Under the pieces are notes generated by a model. The model saw only the letters and a program-made list of their open reading frames with translations. It was not told the origin of the DNA and ran no database searches. A DNA stretch of 64,000 bases from a virus. The stretch is taken from the IMG/VR virus record IMGVR_UViG_3300045988_141580; one strand, 5' to 3'. This document shows positions 8,587 through 50,736 of the stretch, piece after piece (within the stretch, counting starts at the first letter, position 1; each line of letters starts with the position of its first letter). Position numbers and translations under genes: made by a program.

Positions 8587-8588
8587 AA

Positions 8589-12955: not shown

Positions 12956-12956
12956 A

Positions 12957-27174: not shown

Positions 27175-27298
27175 AACAAGGTTGTAATGAGTAAGTACAG
27201 GTTCATTACGTAAATTTAGAGAGCATGACGCTTTAAGCAAATTCCTAAATTCCTTAATATAAGCCAGACAAAAATCAATAGTTTGTCTGGTTTATTTG
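27175..27298 (+). ncRNA. Candidate ~120-nt small RNA (promoter to terminator, no ORF above 8 codons)
   Basis: Bounded by the 27141 promoter and the 27264 hairpin plus T-run. Internal hairpin gtaatga/tcattac. Confidence 0.3.
27264..27290. terminator. Bidirectional hairpin overlapping the stop of the 470-aa gene
   Basis: 9-bp stem ccagacaaa/tttgtctgg with a 9-nt loop; followed by TTTATTTGTT on the plus strand. Confidence 0.6.
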
Positions 27299-28687
27299 TT
27301 CATAATGACTACGTCGCACATTTTCGTCTTCAATAATTTTGGAATTCCTACCCCTCGAAGAATCATAAGAAGTCAAAATAAAATGCCGCACAACTTGATT
27401 CCCATATAAATCCTTAGACACTTCCACACTAATAACAAAAGATTCACCTTTTTGATTAAGCAATTCATACGCTCCATTCCTTTCATTAAATTTTACCTCA
27501 AATGAAGAAGAATCTTTTTGAAACCTAATCAAATTATAAGTAAGTACGTCTTCCGCATTTTTAATGGATGAAAAATCATTCTGTTGAACAAAATGTCGCA
27601 AAAGGATATGTTTTAGACCTTTATCTGCATCACCCCAAACCATATCTATTGAGGTCTCAACCATTAACGGTTCCCCTCCAACTTGATAAACTTGATAAGG
27701 CCTACCATTTTCATCAATATCTATTGCTGGAAGATTTATTTTTACAACATCGTATGCTTGACCAGTTTTTCTTCTAAAAAGTGCCTTAAAAGCTTGTCGA
27801 GGATCACCAACAAAATCCCTAAAAATCTGTCCATATCTTCCTCTAACAAATTTATCTTTTACATCATCATACCAATACCTCCATCGCCCATTACGCCATT
27901 CACGACGAATGTACTTATAGGACTTCATTAGGTATCGCTCCGTAAGATTTAGGAACACGGACTTCTTCACTTCATGCTCCTTACGATGCCATTCCAGCCA
28001 AGCGTAGGACGGCTTCGTTCTGCCATAACCATTCTTCTTCTGCGCCCATTCATAAGCATAGGCTCCACCGCCTAAATCAACTGCATAGATATCAGTCCAT
28101 TCAGGGTGCTTTGCTGCAAATTCCTCAGATTTGGCATAGGTGCGCTCATTTCTTCCAAATTCCTTACCCTTAAAATCACCTGAAATTGATTCCCAGTAGT
28201 TATCCAGTTCCTGCTCCTTCTGACGACGCCTATCCATTTCTTCCTCACGCTTTCGAGCTCGCTCCTGAATAGCATCATAATGTTCCTTCGCATAATCAGC
28301 AAGTTTCTTCACATCTGAATCATAGGTAAAGAAATCCTCATTCATAACACGATGTATATTCGTAACAGAATGATCGCTGATTCTAAACTTTAGACCATAG
28401 CCCTGAACATAGGTGCTAACACCAAAGTCTGTAATTGAACGACTGATATAGAATTCACCAAGACCACGCTTCTTCAACGCTGAAAGCAATTCCTGAGCCT
28501 TGACGTACTGCTGATCAGAGACACGTTCCTGTGCTCTACGTCGTGCCAGACGTTCATCCTGCTCCTGCCGCATTCTCTGCTCAGACACACCATAACGCTG
28601 ACCAACACGCCCAAGCCTACGATTCTCAGGTGTATTGGCATATATACCAGAACGTGCCTTGAGGAATATTTCAGTCAATGTTAGCAT
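27275..28687 (-). CDS. NRRLGRVG-motif protein with C-terminal putative nuclease/toxin-like domain
   Basis: 470 aa. N-terminus SGIYANTPENRRLGRVGQRYG. Contains YKYIRREWRNGRWRYWY. C-terminal GLKHILLRH segment (possibly PBECR-like; unverified). Confidence 0.6.
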   Translation of the reverse strand: MLTLTEIFLKARSGIYANTPENRRLGRVGQRYGVSEQRMRQEQDERLARRRAQERVSDQQYVKAQELLSALKKRGLGEFYISRSITDFGVSTYVQGYGLKFRISDHSVTNIHRVMNEDFFTYDSDVKKLADYAKEHYDAIQERARKREEEMDRRRQKEQELDNYWESISGDFKGKEFGRNERTYAKSEEFAAKHPEWTDIYAVDLGGGAYAYEWAQKKNGYGRTKPSYAWLEWHRKEHEVKKSVFLNLTERYLMKSYKYIRREWRNGRWRYWYDDVKDKFVRGRYGQIFRDFVGDPRQAFKALFRRKTGQAYDVVKINLPAIDIDENGRPYQVYQVGGEPLMVETSIDMVWGDADKGLKHILLRHFVQQNDFSSIKNAEDVLTYNLIRFQKDSSSFEVKFNERNGAYELLNQKGESFVISVEVSKDLYGNQVVRHFILTSYDSSRGRNSKIIEDENVRRSHYEQINQTNY

Positions 28688-29487
28688 ACAACCATCTTTA
28701 TCTCATCATACACCAACTTCAAACGCTTAACAGAATCAGCAATTTCCTTCTGATAAGCAATAATACGAGCTCCGTACCCACTATTCGTGGCCGAGGAAGT
28801 TGACGATATACCCTGACTCAAACCATCCACACCTAAACTCTGACTTGCAATACCTGCACCCAGAATCAGGTCTCCTGCAATATTAAGCGGTCCAAAGCAC
28901 GCCAATTTTCCTATCAGGTTAATCAAGTCCAGGGGCATCGTGTCAAGATCAAAACCTGTAATATATTGAAACGACCAATAATCCGGAATCATCCTAAATC
29001 GCTGACTTCCAAGCTGTGTAGTAATACCCGAAAGAATAACTTCAGCATTAGCCTGACAGGTGGCGCTTCCGGTAGGAACAAGAGATACCCTCCTCTTATA
29101 AAGGCCATAACTATTCTGGTGTGTGGTAAGCCACTCCGTAGGATAGGAAATCTGCTCTATGTTATTGAATCGCCCTGTCAACGATATAGGCTTGTTGACA
29201 GGGTAATTCGTGAATAGAATAGGAAACTGCTGCCAATAGTCAGCACGATAGAACGTGAGCTTCTCTTGACTGATGAACTGCTTCAGAAGCTTGAGGTTGA
29301 AGAAGCTCTCCACCTCCTGCTGCGCTGACTGTATGTAGAAGCGCATACTCTCATTGCTGAATGACGTTCCATCACCACCCTGAATGGTTATACCATACAG
29401 ATACAGCGCAAATATCTCTGACGGATTAAACATCATACCGTCATTCTTTCTGGTTTTCAATGTCAAGACAAGCTGTCCCATCTCCAA
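28681..29487 (-). CDS. Hypothetical head-completion/adaptor-position protein
   Basis: 268-aa ORF two genes downstream of the capsid gene. Confidence 0.6.
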   Translation of the reverse strand: MEMGQLVLTLKTRKNDGMMFNPSEIFALYLYGITIQGGDGTSFSNESMRFYIQSAQQEVESFFNLKLLKQFISQEKLTFYRADYWQQFPILFTNYPVNKPISLTGRFNNIEQISYPTEWLTTHQNSYGLYKRRVSLVPTGSATCQANAEVILSGITTQLGSQRFRMIPDYWSFQYITGFDLDTMPLDLINLIGKLACFGPLNIAGDLILGAGIASQSLGVDGLSQGISSTSSATNSGYGARIIAYQKEIADSVKRLKLVYDEIKMVVC

Positions 29488-30108
29488 CTATTTTGTAGAT
29501 TCCACAATAAACTCTATGATGTCGGCCTTTGTTCTCTTCTCAAGACCGTCAATTTCCAGACCGTTATCCCTTACAAAGGCAAGAAGCTCATCCTTCTTCA
29601 GAGAGACAAGCTCTTCACGCAAGGCCTCATCAGATGTTTCCTCCGGAGTGACTTCACCTGCGACTTCCTCCTCACCACCCTGCTCGTCGTTTTTAGGCTG
29701 CTCTGGCTCAATTTCATCAGGAACCTCAGGTGCTGATTCGGTGGCTCTCGAAAGATTCTCAACAAGAGCCAAGCGTGCCGCCTTTTCCTTCTCGTACTCC
29801 TCCTTCCAGAGTTTCACCTCCGATTCCAGATCCTCAACCTGCTTCTTGCGAGAATCCGCTATATTGCGAAGTCGAGAACACTCACCCTTATACCACTCCT
29901 CCTTCTCAGAAAAATCAGTCTTCATCTGAATTTCCTTCGGGGTCTCATACACAGGCTGCTTACCAAGCTCATAGAGGTCAGCAAAACCCATCTTCAATAT
30001 CTCAGCACCAAAGGCGTCATCCACCTCAGCCACTGAATTGACAAACGTAACCTTTCTTCCGTTGAAATTTACTGTCTGATTGCCTATTTTCTTATCAAAA
30101 AGTTTCAT
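29488..30108 (-). CDS. Acidic protein with C-terminal HeH/SAP-like motif
   Basis: 206 aa with a Glu-rich centre. C-terminus LKKDELLAFVRDNGLEIDGLEKRTKADIIEFI. Confidence 0.6.
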   Translation of the reverse strand: MKLFDKKIGNQTVNFNGRKVTFVNSVAEVDDAFGAEILKMGFADLYELGKQPVYETPKEIQMKTDFSEKEEWYKGECSRLRNIADSRKKQVEDLESEVKLWKEEYEKEKAARLALVENLSRATESAPEVPDEIEPEQPKNDEQGGEEEVAGEVTPEETSDEALREELVSLKKDELLAFVRDNGLEIDGLEKRTKADIIEFIVESTK

Positions 30109-30183: not shown

Positions 30184-31701
30184 TTAAAGGGTAGGAAGAC
30201 CAATCTTACCGATATTGATGATACGAGCGATCTTTCCTGGCTGATAGAGCACTGGAGTACCGTAATTCAGCACGGAGAATGATCTTCTCGGGCCGACAAT
30301 GGCATAATCCAGCTTCATCGTGCCGCCGAGCTCAAGATATTCAAGCATCTCGGATCCGTTGAAGTAAACGAGAGCGGACTTTGTTCCAGCGATCCACCTG
30401 TTGCGGTCGTGAACTGAACCTGCCTCCGCACCATCCCATCCTGCCACAAGCTCAGTCTTGGACACCTTAAAGATAGGATAGAAGTCAGCAACGTTCTTGT
30501 CGGCTGGATTGGCTTCTGTACGATAGATAACATAACAGGTCTCAGGATATGCGGATGATACAGCCCCTGTAAACTTTAAGGCCACGGACTGTGTTGCGCC
30601 TACCGCCTGTGCGTCATCGTTGAGAAGCACGAGCTCTGACTCACCATATCTATTGACGGCTGCAACTGCATAGAAATAGTTTCCAGCGTGCATTGTACCA
30701 AACTGACCCTTTGCATCAACGGCCACTGACACGGCTGCTGCACCATCCTTAACTGGAGCGTTTGGAGCCTTGTCAGAGGTCTTGCCACGACCGAGCTTAA
30801 CTGGAGCGTTCCAATCAAAGTACTTGTCGGCCTTGATGGCAACCTTACCGAACTGTGTCGTGATATCATTAACGGACTGACCCATAGTAGCACCTACGAC
30901 GCCACCCTGCATTCCGACAATGACACGCTTTGATTCGTGGAAGAGCTTAACATAATTGTTGAATACGACTGGGGAGGAAACAATGCGATCGATGATACCG
31001 TTTCGGTCGTTGACGACAGCCTGTGCAGCATCCTCAACAAGAGCGTCAGTAAGAACCGAGCCATTCGCATTGATAACAGCCACGTCACCGAAGTATGCGT
31101 CAAGCACCTGCTCTGAAGTCTTGCCAAGCAGACCACCTGTGATATCATTGATACCTGCAACGTGCTGTGCGAACACACCGTCAAACTCCTCCGGAACCTT
31201 GTTGGAATCAGCGTCGATGACTTTCTTGTCCAGAATCGTCTGAAGAAGAATGGTCTTGTTCTCGACTTCCTTCGTGTAGAGCGAGCCCACAACGGTCTTC
31301 ACAATCATTCCCGGATGAGTTACCTGTCCAGTAACGCCTGTGAACTTCACAACTACTGACTTACGCCTGTAGATGGAATCGGTCTCGGTAGGGGTCTCGC
31401 CCTCAACGTTGAAGATACCGACCTCCTGGCCGTACTTGTAGAGCTGATTGTACTGATGTACGGTGTTTTCGATCCTCTGTCTTCCGAGTTCATTCCAGAA
31501 AACAAGCTGATCAAGCCTGTTCTCGAGGTTCTTGAGAACTCCATCCAGAGATTCCGGCTTCAAGCCGCCACCGTTGTTGAGCTGATTGTCGTACTGCATT
31601 CCAGTCAGCAGACCAGCTTCCATCGCTTTGAGAATCTCCTCTGAGGACATTGACTCAAGCGGATTGGCATTTTCGTTGCCTGTGTAGTTGAACAAATCCA
31701 T
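30184..31701 (-). CDS. Major capsid protein
   Basis: 505 aa. Position after protease and scaffold, strong terminator downstream. ESLDGVLKNLENRLDQLVFWNELGRQRIENTVHQYNQL resembles capsid-family N-terminal regions. Confidence 0.75.
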   Translation of the reverse strand: MDLFNYTGNENANPLESMSSEEILKAMEAGLLTGMQYDNQLNNGGGLKPESLDGVLKNLENRLDQLVFWNELGRQRIENTVHQYNQLYKYGQEVGIFNVEGETPTETDSIYRRKSVVVKFTGVTGQVTHPGMIVKTVVGSLYTKEVENKTILLQTILDKKVIDADSNKVPEEFDGVFAQHVAGINDITGGLLGKTSEQVLDAYFGDVAVINANGSVLTDALVEDAAQAVVNDRNGIIDRIVSSPVVFNNYVKLFHESKRVIVGMQGGVVGATMGQSVNDITTQFGKVAIKADKYFDWNAPVKLGRGKTSDKAPNAPVKDGAAAVSVAVDAKGQFGTMHAGNYFYAVAAVNRYGESELVLLNDDAQAVGATQSVALKFTGAVSSAYPETCYVIYRTEANPADKNVADFYPIFKVSKTELVAGWDGAEAGSVHDRNRWIAGTKSALVYFNGSEMLEYLELGGTMKLDYAIVGPRRSFSVLNYGTPVLYQPGKIARIINIGKIGLPTL

Positions 31702-31738
31702 AATGAACTATAAAATTAAGTAGTTTATAACTGCGAAA

Positions 31739-32491
31739 TTATTTCACCAGACGCACGTTCTTGTTGTTATACATATAGCGTGCGGCTGTCTCACCGATAG
31801 CACCACCAATAGGATCAATGAGGTAGTTCAGGGTCTCGTCACGAAGTGACTTCTGAATAGCCTCATCCTTTTCCTCCTCAATGGCCTTCTCAATCAGCGC
31901 TCTAACGACCATACGGTCACGGCTGACACTGAGAATGGTCTTGTCATTGTCGTCCTTTGCACCACCGCCAATGGACTTTTCAAGCACCGCACGATTCAGT
32001 CCGGCTGACTTGAACGCTGGAGCCTGATCACCGATTGCATCAATCTTGGCGGCAAGACCATCAACGGACTTCATAAGGGTGTCAACCTTTGCGAGAACAT
32101 CCTTAACGGAATCAGCCACCATAGACTTCAACACGTCATCACGCTCATCCAGCACGGAAGAAAGGCTCTTCATCAGTTCGTCCTTGTCAAGGCTCTTTGC
32201 GATAGGCGGCTCGGGGTCAGCACCCTCACCCTCCTTGCCGTCACCGTCACACCCCTCGGACTTCTTCTTCTCGTCCCTATCAGGCTCCTGCTCACCACCG
32301 TCGCCCTCAGAACCGTTGTCAGGATCATTCTGTGACTCATCGCCCTCACCACCGTCGCCCTCGGCTTCCTCAGACTTCAGGGTAATGTCACCAGAGTTGA
32401 TCCAACCTGCGATGGTCTCCTCAGAAAAGCCACTGTCCAACAGAGACTTCACGAGCTCATCTTTCTTCTGATTTTCTGTCAATTCTAACAT
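31739..32491 (-). CDS. Scaffolding protein
   Basis: 250 aa, extremely acidic and helical, between protease and capsid. Confidence 0.7.
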   Translation of the reverse strand: MLELTENQKKDELVKSLLDSGFSEETIAGWINSGDITLKSEEAEGDGGEGDESQNDPDNGSEGDGGEQEPDRDEKKKSEGCDGDGKEGEGADPEPPIAKSLDKDELMKSLSSVLDERDDVLKSMVADSVKDVLAKVDTLMKSVDGLAAKIDAIGDQAPAFKSAGLNRAVLEKSIGGGAKDDNDKTILSVSRDRMVVRALIEKAIEEEKDEAIQKSLRDETLNYLIDPIGGAIGETAARYMYNNKNVRLVK

Positions 32492-32535
32492 AACTCTAAA
32501 AATTTATTGTTTACATTCTACTGGAATCGTGCCGC

Positions 32536-33198
32536 TTAGATGCTTTCTTCCACCGTTGTAAAATCTGATTTAATAATAAACTTCCTGCCACCACGCATAA
32601 CCTCCAGCATCACATCATCACTGATCGCTATTGAACCATCAGTAGGATAAAAATCCTGGGACTGAATTCCCTTGGCAATCTCAATATAGGAGTTAAAGTT
32701 CACAGGAGTGAACGTCATCGCTATATTATTGATTATGGCCTTAAGAATGTGCTTCGGGTTCTTAGGGTCACGTTCCAAAGCACGCCCCTCAATGGACATT
32801 CCTGGCTTGCGTGTTGAGCCGCTCTCAGCCATCTCAATGCACTTGTCCCAGAACGCCCTTGCCTCAGGACTATCCTTCCAGAGCTTACCTTTCACCCACA
32901 ACTTGTTATCAACAATCTTGGCTTCCAGTGGCTCACCTATCCAAAATCTGGATTTGAGTTCCTTCGCCCTTATGGTAAGATGGTCAAGATTCAACAGTCC
33001 GTGCTTCAGGAAGTGGCTCAAGTCAAAACCCTTCGGCTCCATACTCTCTCCCTCATAGTCCTTGCTATTGTCGCTCGCGATGCCCTCAAACACCATATTC
33101 TCGTAGCGTCTTTCGTCACCACGAGGATACCGAGTTGAATCCTCCGCCTTTACAAGATCAGCTGGAAGAAAGAAATTGAAGTCATTCATCCCACTCAT
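32536..33198 (-). CDS. Prohead (maturation) protease
   Basis: 220 aa. FEGIASDNSKDYEGESMEPKGFDL resembles the caudoviral prohead protease N-terminal motif; position fits. Confidence 0.65.
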   Translation of the reverse strand: MSGMNDFNFFLPADLVKAEDSTRYPRGDERRYENMVFEGIASDNSKDYEGESMEPKGFDLSHFLKHGLLNLDHLTIRAKELKSRFWIGEPLEAKIVDNKLWVKGKLWKDSPEARAFWDKCIEMAESGSTRKPGMSIEGRALERDPKNPKHILKAIINNIAMTFTPVNFNSYIEIAKGIQSQDFYPTDGSIAISDDVMLEVMRGGRKFIIKSDFTTVEESI

Positions 33199-33234
33199 TC
33201 ACGTCAATAATTATGGACAAAAATAATCAGAAAC

Positions 33235-34563
33235 TTACATAACAACAAAGATGGGGTCACCAACATAGTCCGTGCCATTCTCATTAACGGAAGTAAACTC
33301 CTCTTCCTTAATTCTGAAATTCACCGAACCATTCCGCAGACCATTCCGCAAGACATCAATTAACTTGCTCATATCAGAATCTTCACCAACATAGCTCACT
33401 GCACACTGAACAAGCCTATTTGTCTCTGGATTTTCCTCGTAGGAAACACTATGAATAAACAATGGCTTGACAAACTTAATTGTCTCCGTGCCATTCACAA
33501 CCACCTCATCAACACCGTTGATTCCCTTCAAAAGCGTCTCAACGCCACACATCGGGTCACGAACAGGCATAGTAAGTTTCCTAACGTCACCCTCCATGCT
33601 CTCCGGAATGACAGCTGCTGCATTCTCCGTGGACAGTGCCTTTTTCACAATGTCAGAGCAGATTTCCTTAAAGCACTGAACAGACATACGACCGTCCTGA
33701 ACAGCCTTGACAACAGTGTCAAGCGGCTCAAGGGAATCCATACGCCACACTCTGTTCATCATATTCAGCACGTTCTTCCCTTGGTCAAAGATGAAGTTCT
33801 TCAACGGAATCTCACTTAAATCAATCCACTCATAAAAGCACTCCTCCGTGGCGTCAACCGTAATCGGCTGCCCTGCATCCACATAAACCTGAAAATACTG
33901 AATATGGGCATCAGAGTTCTTATACTCACCAAGATAACGAATACCTCTGGCCGCAATAGGGTCAAGGTTCGTCTCCTCCTTAAACTCACGCAAGGCGGCT
34001 GTCTTAAAGTCCTCGTTAGGCTCAACGTGCCCTCCAGGAATGCACACTTCACCTGTCGGACACATCTCGTCGTCAACACGATGCAGAATAAGGATCTTAC
34101 CGTCCGATTCACGCATAACAACCATGTCAGCGTATCGAACAGGCTTGCCGTCCACTGACTTAACAAGATTGAAATACTCACCCTCATTCAACTTGCCAGC
34201 CTTGCGAAGCTCCATCAAGCCTTTCAACTTGCGGCTCTTGGCAACCTCATCACGCACCTCCTGACACTCCTCAACAAGTACGTCAATTCCCTTCAGAATC
34301 TTCTCACGCTCATTGACACAGGCTGTGACACGCTTTGTGTGACCTTTCATGAAGTCAGCGTGCTTCGCAAGCACATCAGCTCTTCTGGAATCAGGCACAC
34401 CCTCACCGATGCTGTCAACAATGGACTTCTGAATAGAGAACTGATGAGCAAGTTCCTTACCCTCATCCTCTATCTGAGCAAGCCTCTTCCTAAGATCGTG
34501 ATACTCCTCCAGCTTTTCCTGTGGAGTCATTATCCCAAGCCATTTCTTGAATCTCATAATCAT
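33235..34563 (-). CDS. Nudix-domain protein in the head module
   Basis: Nudix box GHVEPNEDFKTAALREFKEETNL (G-x5-E-x7-REUxEExxU). Start trimmed to ATG 34563, just after the MuF-like stop at 34571. Confidence 0.75.
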   Translation of the reverse strand: MIMRFKKWLGIMTPQEKLEEYHDLRKRLAQIEDEGKELAHQFSIQKSIVDSIGEGVPDSRRADVLAKHADFMKGHTKRVTACVNEREKILKGIDVLVEECQEVRDEVAKSRKLKGLMELRKAGKLNEGEYFNLVKSVDGKPVRYADMVVMRESDGKILILHRVDDEMCPTGEVCIPGGHVEPNEDFKTAALREFKEETNLDPIAARGIRYLGEYKNSDAHIQYFQVYVDAGQPITVDATEECFYEWIDLSEIPLKNFIFDQGKNVLNMMNRVWRMDSLEPLDTVVKAVQDGRMSVQCFKEICSDIVKKALSTENAAAVIPESMEGDVRKLTMPVRDPMCGVETLLKGINGVDEVVVNGTETIKFVKPLFIHSVSYEENPETNRLVQCAVSYVGEDSDMSKLIDVLRNGLRNGSVNFRIKEEEFTSVNENGTDYVGDPIFVVM

Positions 34564-34570
34564 ATAATTT

Positions 34571-35518
34571 TTATACGTCATAATGTTTGTCACCGATATC
34601 AATATGAACCTTGCTTCTGCGCTGCACCTTACGAACATAGTTCTTAGGAGGCTCAAACCTATGATTCTCTTCATTCCACACATAACCCTCTGGAAGCCTG
34701 TTTATTAAACAGCGGCAATATGGATGCACTGGATGTACTGTCGGCTTCCACTCCTTTGACTTCACACCATAGTTCGTGCCGTTGGCCAACAACTCCGATA
34801 ACCTGAATATCCTCGGCTGCGACCCCACACCGTGTGTCAAGTAGAGGCGAATACAGTGCTTGCACGCTCCAGGGTACACCTGAAAGAACACCTTGGGATC
34901 ATCTTCATCCTGCATAAACGTCTGCGCTCTGCCGAGATTAAACACGTCCTGACACTCCGTCTCCACAATACGACCCCAGTCCCTGTTCCAGTCATCCATC
35001 TGATGCGCTATGTTAGAGGCTATCTTCTGCACCGTTCTCTTCTGAACAGTGCCGTTCAGTATCTCGTCATGAATGACCTTGTTCGCTTTTGCGGCCTGTT
35101 CAGTCTGAATATAGGACATCTCCTCCGCTGAGATAGCATTCCTCACGTCATTCTTCAGTCTATCACCAAAACCCTTTATATGAGTGTATGTCTTATTCGC
35201 TGCCACGTCATAGAAGGACAGTTCCATCGCAGTCGGGACAAAATCACCCATTTTAGGAAGAAACTGCAACAGGTCAGAATAACCCATCGTCCTGGTGATA
35301 GAATCGCCCAGTGCAGCCGAAACACGACCAAACAGAAACGACTGATAATGTACTGGAAACTTCGGAATCAACTTTAATAGATCAACACCACGCTTTCTCA
35401 GAATATCCAGATCATACTTCGTAAGATAGTTTCTACCGAGAACACGAGCTATCAGCTTGGCCGTGGACAAGTCCACTTCCTTCAGAATACGCTGTATGTC
35501 CTTGTCAGTAAAAAGCAT
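34571..35518 (-). CDS. MuF/SPP1-gp7-like minor head protein
   Basis: CKHC...VHPVHPYCRCL signature, immediately downstream of the portal. Confidence 0.75.
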   Translation of the reverse strand: MLFTDKDIQRILKEVDLSTAKLIARVLGRNYLTKYDLDILRKRGVDLLKLIPKFPVHYQSFLFGRVSAALGDSITRTMGYSDLLQFLPKMGDFVPTAMELSFYDVAANKTYTHIKGFGDRLKNDVRNAISAEEMSYIQTEQAAKANKVIHDEILNGTVQKRTVQKIASNIAHQMDDWNRDWGRIVETECQDVFNLGRAQTFMQDEDDPKVFFQVYPGACKHCIRLYLTHGVGSQPRIFRLSELLANGTNYGVKSKEWKPTVHPVHPYCRCLINRLPEGYVWNEENHRFEPPKNYVRKVQRRSKVHIDIGDKHYDV

Positions 35519-35519
35519 A

Positions 35520-35690
35520 TCAACCTCGCTTCTCCTTAACTATTCTCGTCATCGTCTCAACAATGTTACCAAACAGCTCCACAGGCGCAAAGCTCTTCAT
35601 CGCTTCACGCTCATATCGCCCCTGCACGGCTGGATATCGCATAGGATCAACGTGCCTCTGCACCCTTGGAACTCTTTCTCTATAAGCCAT
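35520..35690 (-). CDS. Small 56-aa protein between portal and MuF (not in the ORF track)
   Basis: Manual translation MAYRERVPRVQRHVDPMRYPAVQGRYEREAMKSF... The ATG overlaps the portal stop (TAATG) and its stop abuts the MuF-like ATG. Confidence 0.5.
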   Translation of the reverse strand: MAYRERVPRVQRHVDPMRYPAVQGRYEREAMKSFAPVELFGNIVETMTRIVKEKRG

Positions 35691-37411
35691 TATTTAGCCG
35701 ATAACTGATTGTCAATAAATTCCAGTGCCTTGCCAAGAATAGGGTTGCCCTGCGACTTCTGCATAAGCATATCTGCAATATCAAAGTCATCACCATTGCC
35801 ACCCTCACCGTTCATCTCGTCAACAGCTCCATTCATATCCTCCCCACCCATCATCTTGTTGCTCTGTGCGGTCTGATAGATGGAATTGAGAATGGTATCC
35901 TTCTCAGGATCAAGATCACGCCCCGAATACTTACGGAACATATCCTCCAGAGAAACAACACCTGCATCCAGCTTCTTCTTGTCAATATCTATCTGAGCGG
36001 ACTCATCCTTGATGTCCACACCTGTGAACACAAACTCAAAGCGGTCGTCTATCTCAGATATAATATAACGATTCACAATATTCTGGAAGAACACAAGTAA
36101 AGGAAACAGACCTTTCTTCTGTGAATGGTCAAGACGCTCCTTCTGGCCGTCCTGCCCGAACACCCTTGCCGCATCCTGGAACTGAAAACCCAACTCTGAT
36201 GGATCAATACGATATACCGCACAGGTCACAACAAAGAGGAACTTGATCCACTCTGTAAACTCCATGTCCTTATTGGACTGCTGCAAGTCTATCCACTCAA
36301 GATCAATACCCTGTATCACAGGAATCTTGTGAGCGTTATAGACGGTGGACATCGTCTGCTTCCAGTCCTGACGGAACTCATTCAACGTGCCTTGATCAAT
36401 ATTGGAGTTCTTGACGTTAATGAATCCCTTTGGCTGCGACCCCTGCTTAAAGAAGTTGCCGTTGTACTGCATACCCCACAGAATCCACGTCACAACCTCT
36501 ATAAGGGTCTCAAGCTCTGAACAGCCATAGCCGTTCCTGAGCACGTTGGTCGTCTTGTTACGTATGCCATAACCAAGCTCCCACGGATAGTAGATGACAA
36601 GCTCGTCAGTGGCCGGATTACGTATAATCTGACTATCCCACACCATCGCATAACGAGGAAGATAACCGTGCCACCTGTATGATTCGAACATACTTGCATA
36701 GCGAGGGTCATCCGTGTCAAGCTGTCGTATAAGGGAGGCATCAACTGCCCTAAACTTGTTCACTTTCATGCTCCTACTGCGAACCACCTCAAAGCAGAGT
36801 TGATCCAGACAGAGTGAATCTTTTATGGTCTTGCGAGTGAAGTCCTGAAAGTTATCCTCTGAAGACCACTTGTCATTCTCACCGCCATCCTCAAGAAAGC
36901 GCACAAGCCCCTCAACGACTTTCATATCCTTCTTGGATATCTCCTTGATGTCACCGCCAAGCAACCTCTTGTATCGCAGCTGAAATCCAGGTTTCTGATC
37001 ATCATCACTGTATCTCAGAAAGTTCTGAATCTGCTCAATGCGAGTGTTGATTATTGCCTTGATGATATAGATGTCACCCATCCTCTGAAGCGTGGTGAAC
37101 GGTATGCCATTGTTCGGGTCACGATAACCACGACCATTAAAACCGATGTCAGACGGATTCCATAGGATGGACTTGATGTCAGGTTTGACGGCTCTACCAC
37201 TCTTCTCCTGCTGTGCGATGAACGCCTGTGCTTTTAGCACGTCCTCAACGTTCTCTGAACGGAGAGCCTTTTCCAGCCGATTCTGAAGAGCAAGCGGAGC
37301 GGCCTGTGACATCAAGCTCAACTCCTGAATGGACATACTGTCTAAACGGTCTATGGGGGCTGCTTTATCAACCCCCATCTGACCCTTTATGGAATGCTTC
37401 TTCCTACCCAT
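35690..37411 (-). CDS. Portal protein
   Basis: 573 aa, directly upstream of the MuF-like gene at the head of the morphogenesis block. Confidence 0.7.
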   Translation of the reverse strand: MGRKKHSIKGQMGVDKAAPIDRLDSMSIQELSLMSQAAPLALQNRLEKALRSENVEDVLKAQAFIAQQEKSGRAVKPDIKSILWNPSDIGFNGRGYRDPNNGIPFTTLQRMGDIYIIKAIINTRIEQIQNFLRYSDDDQKPGFQLRYKRLLGGDIKEISKKDMKVVEGLVRFLEDGGENDKWSSEDNFQDFTRKTIKDSLCLDQLCFEVVRSRSMKVNKFRAVDASLIRQLDTDDPRYASMFESYRWHGYLPRYAMVWDSQIIRNPATDELVIYYPWELGYGIRNKTTNVLRNGYGCSELETLIEVVTWILWGMQYNGNFFKQGSQPKGFINVKNSNIDQGTLNEFRQDWKQTMSTVYNAHKIPVIQGIDLEWIDLQQSNKDMEFTEWIKFLFVVTCAVYRIDPSELGFQFQDAARVFGQDGQKERLDHSQKKGLFPLLVFFQNIVNRYIISEIDDRFEFVFTGVDIKDESAQIDIDKKKLDAGVVSLEDMFRKYSGRDLDPEKDTILNSIYQTAQSNKMMGGEDMNGAVDEMNGEGGNGDDFDIADMLMQKSQGNPILGKALEFIDNQLSAK

Positions 37412-37425
37412 AAACGGAAGAATTT

Positions 37426-38115
37426 TTAGATTGTGTCCGGATTCACATTAAGCTTCGCTTCGTAGAGAACACCGCTGTATGTTATACGAATCGTGAACCA
37501 AGTCACATTCTTAGGTTCAACAATGCCAAGGTCTGCAACAACCTCCCATGACAGGCCGTTCTTGGCCTTACAGGTGAGGGTCTTCATGTCCTCGGAAATC
37601 TCACCAAGATTGGCGCTCGTTCCAACAAAGTCAAGAACCCTGTCATCAGCCAGAACCTGAACCTGATAGGTACTGTCAGGCTTCTCGGTCTGCTTCTTAA
37701 ATCTGGCTACAAGCCAAGGAAAGTTGTTGTTGGTAAGACCCTCCTCATAAGGATGAGCCTCCACATACTCCGGAAACATATTGGCCTCGTATGTGGCCTT
37801 GTCCTTAACAATGGCAAGACTGAGACCCTCTATTGTGCCATCAAGCTCCGGCTCATTCTCAACATAGTCAGCACTCTCGTCCTGAACAAGAACGTCACCC
37901 TCGAAACACTCAACCTTGGCCTTGCAGAGCTTTGCCATATTCAACATGGAAGCGATGGACACCGCATCACCCATCTTGAAGCAAAATCCGGACTGCACAA
38001 GACCGCTGTAGTTCTTTCCGATGACACCTATCACCATAAAGTTATCGATTCTGCCAAGACCATCAGTCTCCACGATAACTGATTCACTCCCCTTAGTGTA
38101 AATGTACTTTTTCAT
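37426..38115 (-). CDS. Hypothetical protein
   Basis: 229-aa ORF upstream of the portal. Confidence 0.7.
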   Translation of the reverse strand: MKKYIYTKGSESVIVETDGLGRIDNFMVIGVIGKNYSGLVQSGFCFKMGDAVSIASMLNMAKLCKAKVECFEGDVLVQDESADYVENEPELDGTIEGLSLAIVKDKATYEANMFPEYVEAHPYEEGLTNNNFPWLVARFKKQTEKPDSTYQVQVLADDRVLDFVGTSANLGEISEDMKTLTCKAKNGLSWEVVADLGIVEPKNVTWFTIRITYSGVLYEAKLNVNPDTI

Positions 38116-38152: not shown

Positions 38153-38161
38153 GCAAATATA
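38153..38161 (-). promoter_or_regulatory. -7 box TATATTTGC upstream of gene 37426..38115
   Basis: ACTATATTTGC on the minus strand, 38 nt before the ATG. Confidence 0.4.
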
Positions 38162-38242: not shown

Positions 38243-39562
38243 TTAAAATTTTAATAATATACGAAGAACATCAATCTTACAAAAATTCTTAGCACCTACA
38301 GAAGTACTAAAAAGACCGCTTGATGTACGGCTGGCAATTGTTTTTCCACTACCATTTTTAACAAAATAATGGTTGATTTTATTTCCTCTAAGACTTGGAT
38401 TTCGAAACGTTGTGTCTATGGTATAATAAGCACCAAAGGTAAAATTCTGTCCGTCAATATCTATTTTATTAGTATTAGGATGCGATGAACTTCCTGATGA
38501 TGCTGAAGGGAATTTAGCTCGCATCACATTACGAACAATTTTTTCATTTTCTTCAAGCAATTCTTTAATACTTTGAACTTTTTCATCACCCAAATGTCCG
38601 TAACCAACAAAATGTTTAATTTTCTGTAACGTGTCTGCTATCAATGCTGAAGGCTTTTTATTTACTTCAATTTCATCCTTAGATACAACATTCTTTTCAT
38701 CTAAAGATTTCACCTTATTCAACAAATCCTTATATTTCATAATAACATAGAGGGCTGACGCACGTTCAGATTTCTTCAAGCTGTCAAAGTTGTCATTAAA
38801 CTTCTTAACGGCTGCATCATGCATCTGTTTTACAGTGCTTTTCGGCATAACTTCGGCAGCCTTCATCAAATAATCAACTTGCTTACGCCTTGAATCAGTA
38901 AGATACTTCTTCAGGTTCACTTCCTTGGAACGTGGAACATCCGCAAATGTAACACGTGAAGTCGGCTTATCCTGCTTCTCAACACTCTCCTTAACAGGCT
39001 GTTTTTCAACCTTTGAAGGAACTTCCTCCACACCTGCCTCTAAAACAGCCTTTTTCTCAAACTTCTGAGCATTAAACCACTTGTTCACAGCCATAAACAT
39101 TTTAGTGGCAGCCGAAGTGCTCACACCCTCATTATGAACCTTTTGCTGAACATTCTGTATCTTAGCCAGAAACTCCTTATAACAGTCATCAGCAAACGCA
39201 ACAGCCTCATCATGAGTAGCACCGTTATTGACGGCTTCCACATACTTCTTTGCTGGAATATCCTTAGATGGAGAACCACTGCCTGATTCCTTCAACATAA
39301 GATCCACGGACTTACTCTTACCACTCCTCCTAAGAGCCTTATGAACTTCAGCCACGGCTCTGTAATAGTCATCACCAACCCTTCCGGACAGAAACGTCTT
39401 TATGCCAGCCTTAGAAGTAACAATTTCAACGTCTTTGACATTGTCACCACCTTTCTTTTCCTCTGGCTTCTTTGCTTCGCCATAGTGTTGACCAACACGA
39501 TTAAGACGCCTATTTTCCGATGTGTTCTGATAAACACCGCTTCTTGATTTTTCTATTAACAC
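38243..39562 (-). CDS. NRRLNRVG-motif protein, paralogue B
   Basis: 439 aa with a GVYQNTSENRRLNRVGQHYG motif. I read the start codon as GTG (rc of cac at 39560..39562). Shares an ~80-aa module with the next gene. Confidence 0.7.
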   Translation of the reverse strand: MLIEKSRSGVYQNTSENRRLNRVGQHYGEAKKPEEKKGGDNVKDVEIVTSKAGIKTFLSGRVGDDYYRAVAEVHKALRRSGKSKSVDLMLKESGSGSPSKDIPAKKYVEAVNNGATHDEAVAFADDCYKEFLAKIQNVQQKVHNEGVSTSAATKMFMAVNKWFNAQKFEKKAVLEAGVEEVPSKVEKQPVKESVEKQDKPTSRVTFADVPRSKEVNLKKYLTDSRRKQVDYLMKAAEVMPKSTVKQMHDAAVKKFNDNFDSLKKSERASALYVIMKYKDLLNKVKSLDEKNVVSKDEIEVNKKPSALIADTLQKIKHFVGYGHLGDEKVQSIKELLEENEKIVRNVMRAKFPSASSGSSSHPNTNKIDIDGQNFTFGAYYTIDTTFRNPSLRGNKINHYFVKNGSGKTIASRTSSGLFSTSVGAKNFCKIDVLRILLKF

Positions 39563-39582
39563 ATCATTTCATTTTTATGAAT

Positions 39583-39615
39583 GCAAATATAACAATCCCT
39601 CAGAAAATTCCAAGG
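39583..39615 (-). promoter_or_regulatory. Phage promoter cassette copy
   Basis: CCTTGGAATTTTCTGAG-N7-TATATTTGC on the minus strand. Confidence 0.55.
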
Positions 39616-39658
39616 AGTTGTTTATGAAATTTCATACTACAATTTAATTGTCTATGAC

Positions 39659-41440
39659 TCATTCTTTTGTAAACTTCGCTTTATCAAAAGTATCATAAGC
39701 CTTTCTCAACAAATAATCCGTCATATCTTGAGGGTGTCCATTCCTGGCTGCTTCTTGAGCCACCTCAACATCGTGATTAAAAGCTTCAAACTTCTTCTGA
39801 GCAAATTCCTTGGCCTCATCATGAGTAGCACCGTTATTGACGGCTTCCACATATTTTCTGGCTGGCATATCCTTAGACGGATTACCACTACCTACTTCCT
39901 TTAATATAGTTGTAACTTTCTTATTTTTGCCAACCTGTCTAAAAGCATCATAAACCTCAGCCACGGCTCTGTAATAGTCACCACCGACTTTCCCAGACAA
40001 AAACTGCTTTGCACCAGCCTTTGATACGAGAAGTTTAACTTTTTTCCGAGCATTTTCATCTGCTACAAACTTTGCATCACTAAAAGCAACCAGTGCATCC
40101 TTATCCCCTTTACCTGCACGACCTATAGTGTCAGCATAAACTTTATTAGCAAAATCTTCAGCTTCCTTGGCAGTTGCACCATCTCTCAGGGCTTCCAATC
40201 TTTTGAATTCCTTATATTTTGCTTCGAGTCTTTTAGCCTTGAGTTCATCACTATCATCAGGTCTATCCTTTATAAAGGCACGAACTAGCCCCTTAATGTC
40301 CGCTTCAGAAGATTCCTGTTTCTGCTTCTCCTCGACTTCTGCCTTTGCCTTTGTTTCAGCTGCCTCCCTCTTGGCTGCATGACGAGCTCTACGCCTTTCC
40401 TGTCGCTTGGCTCTCTTTTCAGCCTTTCTACGCTCCTCCTCCTCGGCATCCTGCTTGTCAGCGCGATCCTTGAGCTGCTTCACGGTCTCCTTCTGCTCAA
40501 AGTCCTCACCCTCCTTCTTCAGGGCTTCAATCTTCTTGTCATAGGCATCCTGACCGTATTTTTCAACAATCTTGTCCTTATTTTCCTCAAGAATAGAAAT
40601 GTCACGTTTCACGGAGTCACCGTTGCGGGACTGCTTTTCACCTGATTCACCGTCTGGAGCACCCTGTTTCTTTTCACCCTTGTCCTTCTCCTGAGCCGCC
40701 TTGCCGTACTCCTGGCCAACACGATGCAGACGCCTGTTCTTGGCATTGTCAGCATAGCGACCGTGAGCGGCCTTTACAATATCGACGAATGCCGCCCTTG
40801 CATCAGCCAAGTCCTCACGCACGTCAGACAAGTCCTCAGACTTCACAACGTCACAGCACTCATTAAGTGTGTCGCCCCACGATGTCAGATACATACCAAC
40901 CTCTGTCTTCACGGACTTACAGAGCTCTTCATCAATCTCACCAAGCGCAAGTCTTCTCTCCGCATCAGCGGCCACAACGGCACAGGACTTTCTGATGGAA
41001 GAAGCCTGTTCAGCTATCCCAACGTCAACAGTGTTCTCCTCAATGTCATCCTTACCGCCATAGATGGACTTGATGACGTCAGGGCTTGGAACATAGGCAC
41101 GACCCACACGATTCAACTTTCTGTTCTCAAAAGTGTCAGTGTACGTTCCGGCGATTCCCTTCATCATAACACCATCGTTGTCAACTTTCCAGTCAACAAG
41201 CGGCTTGCGATAGTAGAGGGTGCACTGACTACCGTCCTCGTTCGCACAGATTGCTTTCTGCAGACCTGCCATCTCCACTGCAAACTCCTCTCTGTCAGCC
41301 TGTGAAATCTCACCTGCCTGTGACTTCATCATGGTATCCTTGGCGTAGGCGGCAACCTGTGCTTCATCAAACACTTCATAACCATTGAGTAGGGCAACCT
41401 CCCTAAACTTCTCAATCGGAACTAATTTTTTAGTTGTCAT
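39659..41440 (-). CDS. Double NR(K/R)LxRVG-motif protein, paralogue C, with Lys/Glu/Arg-rich centre
   Basis: 593 aa. Motifs GTYTDTFENRKLNRVGRAYV and GRYADNAKNRRLHRVGQEYG. The C-terminal module is paralogous to 38243..39562. Confidence 0.7.
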   Translation of the reverse strand: MTTKKLVPIEKFREVALLNGYEVFDEAQVAAYAKDTMMKSQAGEISQADREEFAVEMAGLQKAICANEDGSQCTLYYRKPLVDWKVDNDGVMMKGIAGTYTDTFENRKLNRVGRAYVPSPDVIKSIYGGKDDIEENTVDVGIAEQASSIRKSCAVVAADAERRLALGEIDEELCKSVKTEVGMYLTSWGDTLNECCDVVKSEDLSDVREDLADARAAFVDIVKAAHGRYADNAKNRRLHRVGQEYGKAAQEKDKGEKKQGAPDGESGEKQSRNGDSVKRDISILEENKDKIVEKYGQDAYDKKIEALKKEGEDFEQKETVKQLKDRADKQDAEEEERRKAEKRAKRQERRRARHAAKREAAETKAKAEVEEKQKQESSEADIKGLVRAFIKDRPDDSDELKAKRLEAKYKEFKRLEALRDGATAKEAEDFANKVYADTIGRAGKGDKDALVAFSDAKFVADENARKKVKLLVSKAGAKQFLSGKVGGDYYRAVAEVYDAFRQVGKNKKVTTILKEVGSGNPSKDMPARKYVEAVNNGATHDEAKEFAQKKFEAFNHDVEVAQEAARNGHPQDMTDYLLRKAYDTFDKAKFTKE

Positions 41441-41524
41441 ATCGTAAAAATTAAAAAGTTTTCATGATACAAATATAGGCAAGTAAAAATTTACCAAAGA
41501 GTCATCGCTCTACCTTTTTATACT

Positions 41525-41853: not shown

Positions 41854-41965
41854 GAGACATAGATGGACTCGAACCACCGTCTACACACTCATTGCGTCTG
41901 CTTTCGTATCTACTTCACGAAACAGCTACATAGAGGGTTGCACTTGCCAGCTATGCTATATGTCT
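41854..41965 (-). tRNA. tRNA-like gene with canonical acceptor, D and T arms but ~38 extra nt in the anticodon/variable region
   Basis: AGACATA/TATGTCT acceptor stem, U8, D-arm GCAT-AGCTGGCAA-GTGC (A14, G18G19, A21), T-arm GGTGG-TTCGAGT-CCATC. 60 nt lie where about 22 are expected; no anticodon could be assigned. Confidence 0.4.
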
Positions 41966-42333: not shown

Positions 42334-42417
42334 AATAAAAACCCATCCTTGGACGAATAAAAACCCATCCTTGGACGAATAAAAACCCATCCTTGGACGA
42401 ATAAAAACCCATCCTTG
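42334..42417. repeat. Iteron array: 3.8 tandem copies of the 22-bp unit aataaaaacccatccttggacg
   Basis: Three exact copies at 42334, 42356 and 42378 plus an 18-nt partial at 42400, immediately upstream of the Rep-like gene promoter. Confidence 0.9.
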
Positions 42418-42438
42418 AAAAAATGCCATCAAAATAAA

Positions 42439-42471
42439 TTTGGTATTTTATTAGTCTTAAACTATATTTGC
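42439..42471 (+). promoter_or_regulatory. Bacteroidota-type promoter (-33 TTTG, -7 TATATTTGC) for the Rep-like gene
   Basis: TTTG at 42439..42442 and TATATTTGC at 42463..42471, a 20-nt spacer. Confidence 0.55.
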
Positions 42472-42489
42472 CGTAAAATAAATGAAGTT

Positions 42490-43293
42490 ATGATAGAAAC
42501 AGTAAGATTCCCTATGGAAGTGGATTTTTCAGAATGGAACGTTGCTCAACGAAAATGCTTGTATCTTGTTGCCCAACAGTTACAGCCGTTTTGGGGTAAA
42601 ATAGACTTTGCCAAACTTGATGAAGACTGGGAAACCTATATCAAGTTCTTGAAAAAGGAGCTTAATTTGGATTCCTATTGTTATTTTCACTGTAAAGTGA
42701 ATATTCGTCTATTAAGTGTGCGTAATAAAATTCGTTCTTCTTTTAAGAATGCTCTTATGTCTTTAACTAAAGACTTCTATCTCATAGAAAAGGGGAGTTC
42801 TAAAACTCGTGGCCGCATATTCTTTCCATTTATTAAAATTATATGGGATGAAGTAGATGGAACTAAAAATGAAATAGTTATGGGTCTGGAATCTGTTAGA
42901 TTCTTTTTGGAAGTGCTAAATAATAATTATCGTAATGTTCATATTCCATCTGTTTGCAAGTTGAACTCTACAACATCTATGGATGTTTATGAATTTATTA
43001 GCAAGTACCATTCTTTAGCCCAAGAACAGGGTTCAATAACAATTTCTCTTGAGAAATTTAGAACATTACTTCATATTACTGAAGATACTCCTTGGGCAAG
43101 AATTCAGGAACGCTGGCTAATTCCATCCAGAATGAATTTTATAGATGAACAAACTCTATTGAATTTTAATTTCCAACCTGTTTATAAAGAAGTACCTGAT
43201 CGTCCTATAATTCGAGGTAGAAAGCCTGTTACACACATTCAATTTGAGATTTTCAAACAGGTGCAGGATAAAATTCCAAGTCAGAAACGATAA
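42490..43293 (+). CDS. Putative iteron-binding replication initiator (Rep_3-like)
   Basis: Adjacent to the iterons. The N-terminal WNVAQRKCLYLVAQQL resembles the Rep_3 N-terminal motif. Start moved to ATG 42490 because the promoter lies inside the longer track ORF. Confidence 0.5.
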   Translation: MIETVRFPMEVDFSEWNVAQRKCLYLVAQQLQPFWGKIDFAKLDEDWETYIKFLKKELNLDSYCYFHCKVNIRLLSVRNKIRSSFKNALMSLTKDFYLIEKGSSKTRGRIFFPFIKIIWDEVDGTKNEIVMGLESVRFFLEVLNNNYRNVHIPSVCKLNSTTSMDVYEFISKYHSLAQEQGSITISLEKFRTLLHITEDTPWARIQERWLIPSRMNFIDEQTLLNFNFQPVYKEVPDRPIIRGRKPVTHIQFEIFKQVQDKIPSQKR

Positions 43294-50667: not shown

Positions 50668-50689
50668 ATCGTATGTGTTTAATTCGTGT

Positions 50690-50722
50690 GCAAATATAAG
50701 GCTGCTCCTTGGATATCCAAGG
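50690..50722 (-). promoter_or_regulatory. Phage promoter cassette copy with a perfect 16-bp palindrome
   Basis: CCTTGGATATCCAAGG then TATATTTGC. Confidence 0.6.
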
Positions 50723-50736
50723 AGCAATCCAGGAAA

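Follow-up and report, generated by a model that had tools for sequence, protein, structure and literature searches.

What does a peptide of ~20 residues do that recurs in mosaic proteins encoded beside the head genes of a gut phage? The question is raised by a 64,000-nucleotide stretch of viral DNA (IMG/VR record IMGVR_UViG_3300045988_141580; hereafter the window, meaning the whole stretch), in which two tandem genes between positions 38,243 and 41,440 and a third gene beyond the capsid gene encode proteins of 593, 439 and 470 residues that carry the motif G-x-Y-x-(D/N)-(T/N)-x-x-N-R-(R/K)-L-x-R-V-G. An earlier note on this DNA had offered capsid targeting, processing and host interaction as possible functions, and the genomic context of the motif, read from sequence, favors the first of these. 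We give a probability of roughly 45% to the idea that the motif is a common docking peptide that would bring modular effectors into the procapsid, in place of a covalent MuF fusion. Head-packaged modular effectors are as such a known kind of system. What appears to be new is a linear tag of ~20 residues that unites effectors, is present in more than 1,000 protein clusters and is common with invertebrate kinases.

Four motif copies in three mosaic proteins

The motif is present in exactly four copies in the window, in three minus-strand proteins, and all four strings lie where the earlier note had placed them. The copies, their carriers and the modules of those carriers are as follows.

41090..41149, minus strand: motif copy 1 of the 593-residue protein (GTYTDTFENRKLNRVGRAYV), 45 bits
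40703..40762, minus strand: motif copy 2 of the 593-residue protein (GRYADNAKNRRLHRVGQEYG), 53 bits
39479..39538, minus strand: motif copy of the 439-residue protein (GVYQNTSENRRLNRVGQHYG), residues 9-28, 56 bits
28589..28648, minus strand: motif copy of the 470-residue protein (GIYANTPENRRLGRVGQRYG), 56 bits
39659..41440, minus strand: 593-residue mosaic protein (open reading frame (ORF) call, BLASTP)
38243..39562, minus strand: 439-residue mosaic protein, GTG start (ORF call; an identical gene call is public, P0001)
27275..28687, minus strand: 470-residue protein (ORF call, Pfam)
39740..40045, minus strand: shared helical module, copy in the 593-residue protein, residues 466-567 (BLASTP, DNA repeat)
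39131..39436, minus strand: shared helical module, copy in the 439-residue protein, residues 43-144 (BLASTP, DNA repeat, AlphaFold2 (AF2))
27353..27652, minus strand: PBECR1-like (predicted RNase) region of the 470-residue protein, residues 346-445 (Pfam PF18809)

The scores are those of a hidden Markov model (HMM) of the motif alone, run over all six-frame segments of the window. Because the four copies score 45-56 bits and the next-best segment only 4 bits, chance is excluded and there are no degenerate extra copies.

The 593-residue protein has a conserved domain of ~90 residues at its N terminus and the shared helical module at its C terminus, with the two motif copies and a low-complexity stretch rich in K and E in between, and its homologs P0028, P0056, P0060-63 and P0072 have motifs at the same positions (here and below, P numbers denote individual proteins and L numbers individual loci). 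In the 439-residue protein, the N-terminal motif lies in a disordered leader and is followed by the shared helical module, a widely conserved helical domain at residues ~200-285 and a variable C-terminal region of ~140 residues. In the 470-residue protein, the motif is N-terminal and is followed by a middle domain and, toward the C terminus, by a PBECR1-like region, whose match to PF18809 (E = 1.1e-4) spans profile positions 9-102 of 104 and scores 23 bits, under the cutoff of 27.6. Its middle domain is common to proteins with LPD1, PBECR1+LPD3, ART-PolyVal, InPase or Zeta-toxin domains (PF18796, PF18798, PF18809, PF18760, PF18823 and PF06414 among the homologs sharing it), and homolog P0276 has both PF18809 and PF18798.

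When the two tandem proteins were compared by BLASTP, both motif copies were aligned together with a module of 60 identities in 102 residues (59%; E = 8e-34). Nothing else aligned: outside the motif and the module the proteins are unrelated, their termini included, as the note had said. The DNA repeat underlying the module has an offset of 609 bp and 74% identity over 246 nucleotides. It includes an exact run of 41 nucleotides (39204-39244 = 39813-39853), and this run within a repeat of 74% identity suggests a recent duplication or gene conversion between the tandem genes.

The 593- and 439-residue genes are in the same reading frame, and read-through to give a fusion protein was considered and rejected. 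The genes are separate because the 96-nucleotide spacer between them carries five in-frame TGA/TAA stops and a promoter box. This box is of the Bacteroidetes -7 type (TAnnTTTG; TATATTTG), with 13 copies in the window versus 2.0 expected, three of which precede the genes discussed here.

41470..41477, minus strand: -7 box TATATTTG with upstream TTTG, ahead of the 593-residue gene
39584..39591, minus strand: -7 box ahead of the 439-residue gene
38154..38161, minus strand: -7 box ahead of the 229-residue gene and the portal gene

Each tandem gene therefore does have a promoter box of its own, as had been claimed, but the label "early-type" attached to it is unsupported: the box is of a host type and is shared with the head genes.

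The motif is far better conserved than its carriers

The 439-residue protein has 265 homologs, all on phage-size contigs, in which the motif is near-invariant at residues ~17-30 and the remainder is variable; among the matches listed, it is near-invariant in 74 of 120. The coverage of the protein by 119 homologs gives a similar picture: ~97 cover the first 40 residues and ~107 the helical domain at residues 200-285, ~52 cover the shared module, and only 3-10 extend over the last 140 residues. The swappable heads suggested in the earlier note are thus borne out, in that the C-terminal part is replaced while the motif is kept.

To find the motif in other proteins, we used a profile built from the phage copies alone (profile A2) and searched it against 1.84 billion protein cluster representatives. 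An exhaustive HMM search was used instead of a word-index homology search, which had given just 32 short candidates for a 42-residue motif profile. The search returned 1,283 protein clusters at E <= 1e-3 and 391 at E <= 1e-10. The motif had no Pfam or NCBIfam match in any protein scanned and is contained in none of the PDB chains searched with its profile, and the motif strings are not printed in a relevant context in the searchable literature. With tblastn, phages of Enterococcus, Pseudomonas and Gordonia gave weak matches (E 2-6) that we attribute to chance; the one in Enterococcus lies in a 107-residue early-region ORF.

Phage-type copies follow the consensus K-[SA]-R-[ST]-G-[VI]-Y-x-D-[TN]-x-E-N-R-[RK]-L-x-R-V-G-Q-x-Y-G, after which comes a low-complexity stretch rich in K, E and Q, and they have an extra conserved prefix, [IL]-E-K-[AS]-R-[ST]-G. 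The motif is strongly basic. From its residues it is probably a two-turn helix, with D-T-P-E as N-cap, NRRLxRV as core and G as C-cap, flanked by two aromatics. In the AF2 model of the 439-residue protein (67-sequence alignment), residues 1-43 have a predicted local distance difference test score (pLDDT) below 50, with a three-residue helix only at R19-N21, whereas residues 45-170 are confidently all-helical (pLDDT ~85-95) and the C terminus is uncertain. Because this leader is modeled with low confidence and the model has no significant neighbor in the PDB, we regard the motif as a linear element of a disordered leader and not as part of a fold. Low pLDDT beside a confident helical domain is typical of a peptide that would fold on binding. 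Structure prediction and structural search had been proposed in the note for the variable termini; Foldseek of the model against the PDB gave nothing better than E = 0.3. PDB sequence searches with the 470- and 593-residue proteins gave no match, and searches of the 439- and 593-residue proteins against Pfam, PHROGs and NCBIfam gave only sub-threshold noise (pP_pnuc_1, Ligase_CoA, LIC_13029).

Several known peptides were also considered. RHIM, WH2, the AT-hook and the DnaK-binding peptide NRLLLTG were rejected, as none fits the conserved positions. A test for RHIM by its (I/V)-Q-(I/V)-G core and by Pfam RHIM gave no match on phage proteins or on the kinase repeats described below; the motif core is L-x-R-V-G with three conserved arginines, unlike the RHIM core.

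Motif genes occupy several slots in the head module

All long genes within positions 1-41440 of the window are on the minus strand, and their order of transcription is 593-residue gene, 439-residue gene, 229-residue gene, portal, MuF-like gene, 482-residue Nudix gene, prohead protease, acidic scaffold and major capsid protein, followed by 206-, 268- and 470-residue genes and then tail genes. The head module contains the candidate partners of the motif.

30184..38115, minus strand: head-morphogenesis module (Pfam, PHROG, homology)
First gene of the module, upstream of portal, minus strand: 229-residue protein
35690-37411, minus strand: portal (PF04860, phrog_12)
34571-35518, minus strand: MuF-like protein, 315 residues, a separate gene
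33235-34683, minus strand: Nudix protein, 482 residues, between MuF and prohead protease
32536-33198, minus strand: prohead protease (phrog_1028)
31739-32491, minus strand: very acidic scaffold
30184-31701, minus strand: SU10/SPO1-type major capsid protein (phrog_752)

The window is part of a ~100-kb Bacteroidota myovirus-like gut phage, as indicated by the relatives of its capsid protein, its Bacteroidetes-type promoter boxes and public contigs of up to 101.5 kb that encode an identical 439-residue protein. The major capsid protein is 90% identical to that of a human-faecal "Bacteriophage sp." fragment and ~35% identical to the capsids of the 167-179-kb Bacteroides thetaiotaomicron phages DAC16-23 and SJC03. 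A megablast search of the locus against 50,697 phage records gave no match.

The mapping of head genes covered 63 + 38 IMG/VR loci and three additional contigs. The motif gene has head genes within 8-10 kb in ~45 of the 63 loci of the first IMG/VR scan and in 29 of 41 later loci (38 scan loci and three look-ups). The most frequent arrangement (~45 loci, in which the synteny of the head module is kept) is that of the window, where the motif gene is directly upstream of 229aa-portal-MuF-Nudix-protease-scaffold-capsid. In a second arrangement, seen where portal identity is only 33-49%, the motif gene separates portal from MuF (examples are L005, L015, L060, L071, L072, L074, L086, L091, L095 and L103). 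In a third, it lies between MuF and protease and is often fused to the Nudix protein (L069, L070, L092, L093), and in a fourth it follows the 268-residue gene, the slot of the 470-residue gene of the window (L078, L079). In L089, the motif is fused to the prohead protease itself: a protein of 502 residues (7242-8750) has a protease domain at residues 10-182 (37% identity, E = 6e-32) and then the motif at residue ~262. A further region after this motif is similar to the 470-residue window protein. The occupation of several different slots in the head module argues for repeated, independent placement.

The same linkage is seen in other settings. In the cultured phage DAC16, the gene DAC16_196 (552 residues, motif at residue ~33) comes directly after portal (DAC16_192) and MuF (DAC16_195), and on a contig binned as Sulfuricurvum the motif gene is portal-linked too. 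Coding alongside portal-terminase head genes, the arrangement of phage-type polyvalent proteins, is thus found here as well. The earlier note had also proposed to scan integrative and conjugative elements for the motif; a genome scan, which found three loci, one of them clearly portal-linked, gave no evidence for such an association.

Some of these head modules have further insertions. Inteins (Intein_splicing, LAGLIDADG_3) are present in portal genes and in a gene at the MuF position of related phages (L069 1-2056; L070 3757-5955 and 7074-9017). In L005, from a distant motif-bearing phage, MuF is followed immediately by genes for a radical-SAM/SPASM protein and for a TET-associated glycosyltransferase, TAGT (12302-14763), and these genes may be a DNA-hypermodification system inside the head module.

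Motif proteins carry effector-type cargo without a MuF domain

The phage motif is located in a predicted disordered leader or between domains. A Pfam scan of 78 phage-type matches identified domains in a minority only: NUDIX in seven, DUF5661 in four, ADPrib_exo_Tox and ART-PolyVal in two each, and Kinase-PolyVal, Zeta_toxin and Gln_amidase in one each. GNAT, PBECR1, LPD1/LPD3 and InPase are further modules on motif-bearing relatives. The Zeta toxin accompanies the motif in DAC16_76 (E = 3e-35) and in proteins of L016, L018 and L064, and P0183 has two motifs and a Zeta toxin; glutamine deamidase (Gln_amidase) is found on motif proteins of L008 and L013. With ADP-ribosyltransferase (ART) and PBECR1 domains also on motif proteins, these have the variable C-terminal toxins of known effector families. 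The larger relatives have several motifs: P0150 has a Nudix domain, two motifs (residues 305 and 561) and GNAT, P0171 has motifs at residues 815 and 1105, and P0190 (1458 residues) has a motif, Nudix, a second motif, ART-PolyVal and DUF5661, with its motifs at residues 103 and 922. Among the proteins scanned, no motif polypeptide contains a Phage_Mu_F or portal domain, and none contains a metallopeptidase (MPTase) or other peptidase domain.

The 482-residue Nudix protein of the window (33235-34683, minus strand) is itself motif-free, and its positional counterparts P0150, P0190 and those of L092/L093 are fused to motif-headed GNAT and ART-PolyVal cassettes.

Related phage systems

Polyvalent proteins (Iyer, Burroughs, Anand, de Souza and Aravind 2017; PMC5512222) resemble the motif proteins in their extreme mosaicism and location at portal/head genes and, as far as the motif-bearing relatives go, in their domain repertoire (ART-PolyVal, Kinase-PolyVal, PBECR1, LPD1/LPD3, Zeta toxin, GNAT, Nudix, InPase), and P0190, P0150 and P0171 are true multidomain members of this class. 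However, polyvalent proteins combine 2-15 domains, whereas the window proteins have none (439 and 593 residues) or one sub-threshold PBECR1 (470 residues), and the globular header of polyvalent proteins (MuF, portal or ArdC-N) is here a 20-residue peptide in a disordered leader. We found no mention of the motif in the text of the polyvalent-protein paper (PMC5512222).

MuF polymorphic toxins (Jamet et al. 2017, PMC5576092; Bxa of Bacteroides, PMC11699363; Apk2) likewise join a conserved N-terminal element to swappable C-terminal toxins; ART and glutamine deamidase are also among those of Bacteroidaceae, and capsid delivery is presumed. Prophages of Bacteroidaceae have these two toxins joined to MuF, a domain considered to target the capsid (PMC11699363, PMC5576092, PMC5512222), and polyvalent proteins and MuF toxins are both regarded as head-packaged, injected effectors (PMC5512222, PMC5576092, PMC9503650, PMC11699363). 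Whereas MuF toxins have MuF (PF04233) in the same polypeptide, here MuF is a separate 315-residue gene and the toxins carry the peptide. The motif phages also look lytic, at ~100-180 kb, unlike the MuF-toxin (pro)phages. The link to MuF and polyvalent proteins that the earlier note had drawn thus holds for domains and gene neighborhood, but not for residence in the same polypeptide as MuF among the proteins scanned. No adjacent immunity genes were identified, although no systematic search was made; in the window the neighbors are conserved head genes.

The capsid-targeting sequence of T4 and the N-terminal signal of the P1 Dar proteins are alike in having a short, shared N-terminal element and partly dispersed genes, without sequence similarity to the motif. 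In both systems, a short signal on unrelated proteins directs entry into the prohead for injection. The T4 sequence is ~10 residues long, poorly conserved and removed by gp21 at L/I-x-E, whereas the motif is ~20 residues long, is conserved over hundreds of clusters and can be internal or duplicated. A T4-like L/I-x-E pattern is not consistently adjacent to the motif copies. As in T4, sharing among proteins of one genome is observed: three window proteins and at least one elsewhere in a near-identical genome carry the motif within the first 10-40 residues. The T4 internal proteins (IPI-III, Alt) are summarized in PMC9503650.

A comparison with peptides that dock inside capsid shells is also of interest, although their consensus differs from the motif and capsid binding is putative here. 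The cargo-loading peptides of encapsulins and the tail of the HK97 protease are short, conserved Gly/Leu/basic peptides in disordered extensions that dock inside an HK97-fold shell and are sometimes repeated. In HK97-type proteases, this capsid-targeting tail follows the protease domain, and the prohead protease is itself incorporated into proheads. The motif of L089 is in the protease-tail position, and for that reason it supports a role as a tag.

Tandem motif repeats in invertebrate kinases

At least four motif copies are present in 35 of 129 newly listed top profile matches. All of the multi-copy matches that were scanned or looked up and could be identified are eukaryotic TKL Ser/Thr kinases (Pkinase E ~1e-50), including Biomphalaria KAK0061970.1, Acanthaster XP_022104385.1, Saccostrea XP_062600528.1 and Physella XP_059146664.1 (among P0134-P0143 and others); other multi-copy matches are repeat-only or truncated proteins. 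The kinase genes are on contigs of 0.2-5 Mb. Their repeat, [KR]-T-Y-V-D-N-x-x-N-R-x-L-G-R-V-G-x-P-x-G-[ST], is separated by Ser-rich spacers and lies N-terminal to the kinase domain, in disordered regions.

The core of the kinase repeat (YVDNxxNRxLGRVGxPxGS, for example in XP_022104385.1) is identical to the phage motif at 10 spaced positions. At positions outside the search regular expression, phage and animal copies have Y in 97 and 97%, D in 82 and 95%, T/N versus N, and the final G in 73 and 94%, respectively. Unlike the phage proteins, the kinases have 5-13 tandem copies with Ser-rich spacers and eukaryotic kinase domains, and their copies do not have the phage prefix IEKARSG. The kinase repeats have no Pfam match and are not described in the searchable literature, and an AF2 model of the kinase P0135 made without an alignment (pLDDT 35) was uninformative on the repeats. 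The kinases that carry them possibly have an immune role.

Weighing an encapsidation tag against other functions

The reading of the motif as an encapsidation tag is argued for by its persistence on variable carriers, the effector-type cargo, the position in the head module and the protease fusion, in proteins that have no MuF or portal domain. Neither a MuF nor a portal domain occurs in any motif protein scanned, which is what one would expect if tag and MuF fusion were alternatives to one another. The motif, located in a predicted disordered and basic leader, would serve as an address tag common to a modular, rapidly shuffled family of effectors and would bind one component of the assembling head. 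Its conservation, leader position, cargo and genomic setting are observed, and its binding to a head component, encapsidation and injection are inferred. Candidate receptors are MuF, the HK97-fold capsid protein at its inner face, the acidic scaffold and the acidic C terminus of the portal; the last two are strongly acidic in this phage by their protein sequences, which would make them natural receptors for a basic motif. The tagged cassette, whether a Zeta-toxin kinase, glutamine deamidase, ADP-ribosyltransferase, PBECR RNase, Nudix, GNAT or kinase domain or an orphan domain as in the 439- and 593-residue proteins, would in this way end up inside the procapsid and enter the next host together with the DNA. 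The tag would be a non-covalent replacement for the MuF/portal fusions of polyvalent proteins and MuF toxins, and in fused polyvalent relatives the motif recurs at the head of successive cassettes.

Several observations weigh against this proposal. The 439- and 593-residue proteins have no recognizable enzymatic domain (in the domain libraries for both, by Foldseek of the model for the former and in the PDB for the latter), and the PBECR1 of the 470-residue protein is under the Pfam cutoff. The loci share ancestry, so that locus counts overstate independence. Not all motif genes are near head genes: in L048, a gene (8989-10122) for a protein with the motif and a papain-fold glutamine deamidase (Gln_amidase) lies among SbcCD, UvsX-like, RuvC-like, NAD-ligase and helicase genes, and it encodes the fourth motif protein of a phage near-identical to that of the window, located outside the window in the replication module. 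Three DAC16 motif genes are ~80 kb from the head module and adjoin very large genes with LamG, collagen-trimerization and phosphoesterase domains. Finally, TKL kinases of molluscs and echinoderms have this core in 5-13 tandem copies, which speaks against a role confined to the capsid. These copies are not capsid cargo and therefore cannot be accounted for by a capsid-specific receptor; they suggest that the partner or property involved is not confined to phages. Either phages exploit a general property of the peptide or two uses have diverged.

The kinases bear most directly on the possibility that the motif has affinity for itself or for a ubiquitous polymer, with nucleic acid the most plausible one, and that any packaging role is secondary. 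Phage effectors and kinases alike would then profit from avidity or clustering on DNA or RNA, or from homotypic assembly. We consider this rather unlikely. It would account for the presence of the core Y-x-D-N/T-x-x-N-R-x-L-x-R-V-G-x-x-x-G in eukaryotic genes that are genuine and lie on contigs of Mb scale, with agreement outside the search expression, and the multivalency of the kinases suggests a polymeric or multivalent target, for which three near-invariant arginines with Tyr and Asn would be suited; the phage copies in a replication module are consistent with it as well. However, the motif is unlike known nucleic-acid-binding, RHIM and other amyloid motifs, the repeats have no Pfam match and no counterpart in a PDB chain, and three conserved arginines would be unusual for an amyloid core. 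DNA binding alone would leave the persistent head-module placement and the prohead-protease fusion unexplained, and proteins riding on DNA would not be expected to pass the portal in terminase-driven packaging. Overlapping with this explanation is an ancient cross-kingdom peptide module, a new nucleic-acid/polymer-binding or self-associating element that would be used as single copies in phages and as 5-13 copies in kinases for clustering-driven activation, which we regard as unlikely.

A conserved host factor could instead be the partner, in which case the motif would guide effectors made in the infected cell to their site of action, or activate them there, and no packaging would be involved. 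If bacteria and animals had this partner in common, for example a chaperone or the translation machinery, the eukaryotic copies would be explained too, and the host-type promoter of each gene and the motif genes in non-structural regions fit this idea. The head genes, however, are driven by the same -7 box, the head-module linkage and the protease fusion would be unexplained, and cargo targets as diverse as those of a UDP-sugar kinase, RNase, ART, deamidase and Nudix fit trafficking better than target recognition, which makes a host factor decidedly improbable. We think it very improbable that the motif is a processing site or cassette boundary, at which a protease would cut polyproteins or remove the leader as in T4. 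The motif does recur between the domains of the fused relatives P0190, P0150 and P0171, and the 439-residue protein begins exactly at the extra conserved phage-type prefix. Yet ~12 conserved positions are rarely needed by a cleavage site, the eukaryotic copies are without the prefix, and none of the motif proteins scanned has a peptidase domain of its own. In addition, the capsid protein, scaffold and portal, which are the expected protease substrates, have nothing motif-like in the HMM scan of the window.

Other features of the window

A tRNA-like gene at 41854-41965 (minus strand) matches Rfam RF00005 with 38 bits against a gathering score of 29 and was missed by ARAGORN. It has ~52 nucleotides in place of the 13-nucleotide core of the anticodon arm, which suggests an intron or insertion, and the sequence after the D-arm (…GCAAC CCUCUAUGU…) contains a putative CUA (amber-suppressor) anticodon. 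Three adjacent pairs of minus-strand ORFs are joined in frame by a single TAG, at 28681-30108 (206+268 residues), 4448-7630 (214+845 residues) and 50197-52227 (496+176 residues), and without read-through the downstream ORFs would have to begin at TTG or GTG straight after the stop. Together, the pairs and the possible suppressor tRNA hint at programmed amber read-through, although TAG is also an ordinary stop in this DNA. General TAG recoding as a confounder of the gene calls was rejected, as 13 of 49 long minus-strand ORFs end in TAG.

A perfect 22-bp tandem repeat (AATAAAAACCCATCCTTGGACG; 3.8 copies) is located at 42334-42417, in the 975 bp of non-coding DNA from which the structural genes and a plus-strand ORF of 292 residues (42415-43293) diverge, and resembles an iteron or origin arrangement.

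Implications

A linear motif of such strength common to phages and animals is unexpected and apparently undescribed, and deserves an explanation whatever its partner. If the cross-kingdom module were real, it would be a new class of short signaling or docking repeat shared by bacterial viruses and animals. If the motif is an encapsidation tag, it would explain how a large and abundant group of gut Bacteroidota phages loads ever-changing toxin-like effectors without fusing them to MuF or portal, and dozens of "hypothetical" head-module genes would become predicted injected effectors. A handle of 20-30 residues would also become available with which foreign proteins could be brought into phage capsids. 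Since the motif is present in DAC16-23 and SJC03, which are cultured phages of Bacteroides thetaiotaomicron, these ideas are directly testable.

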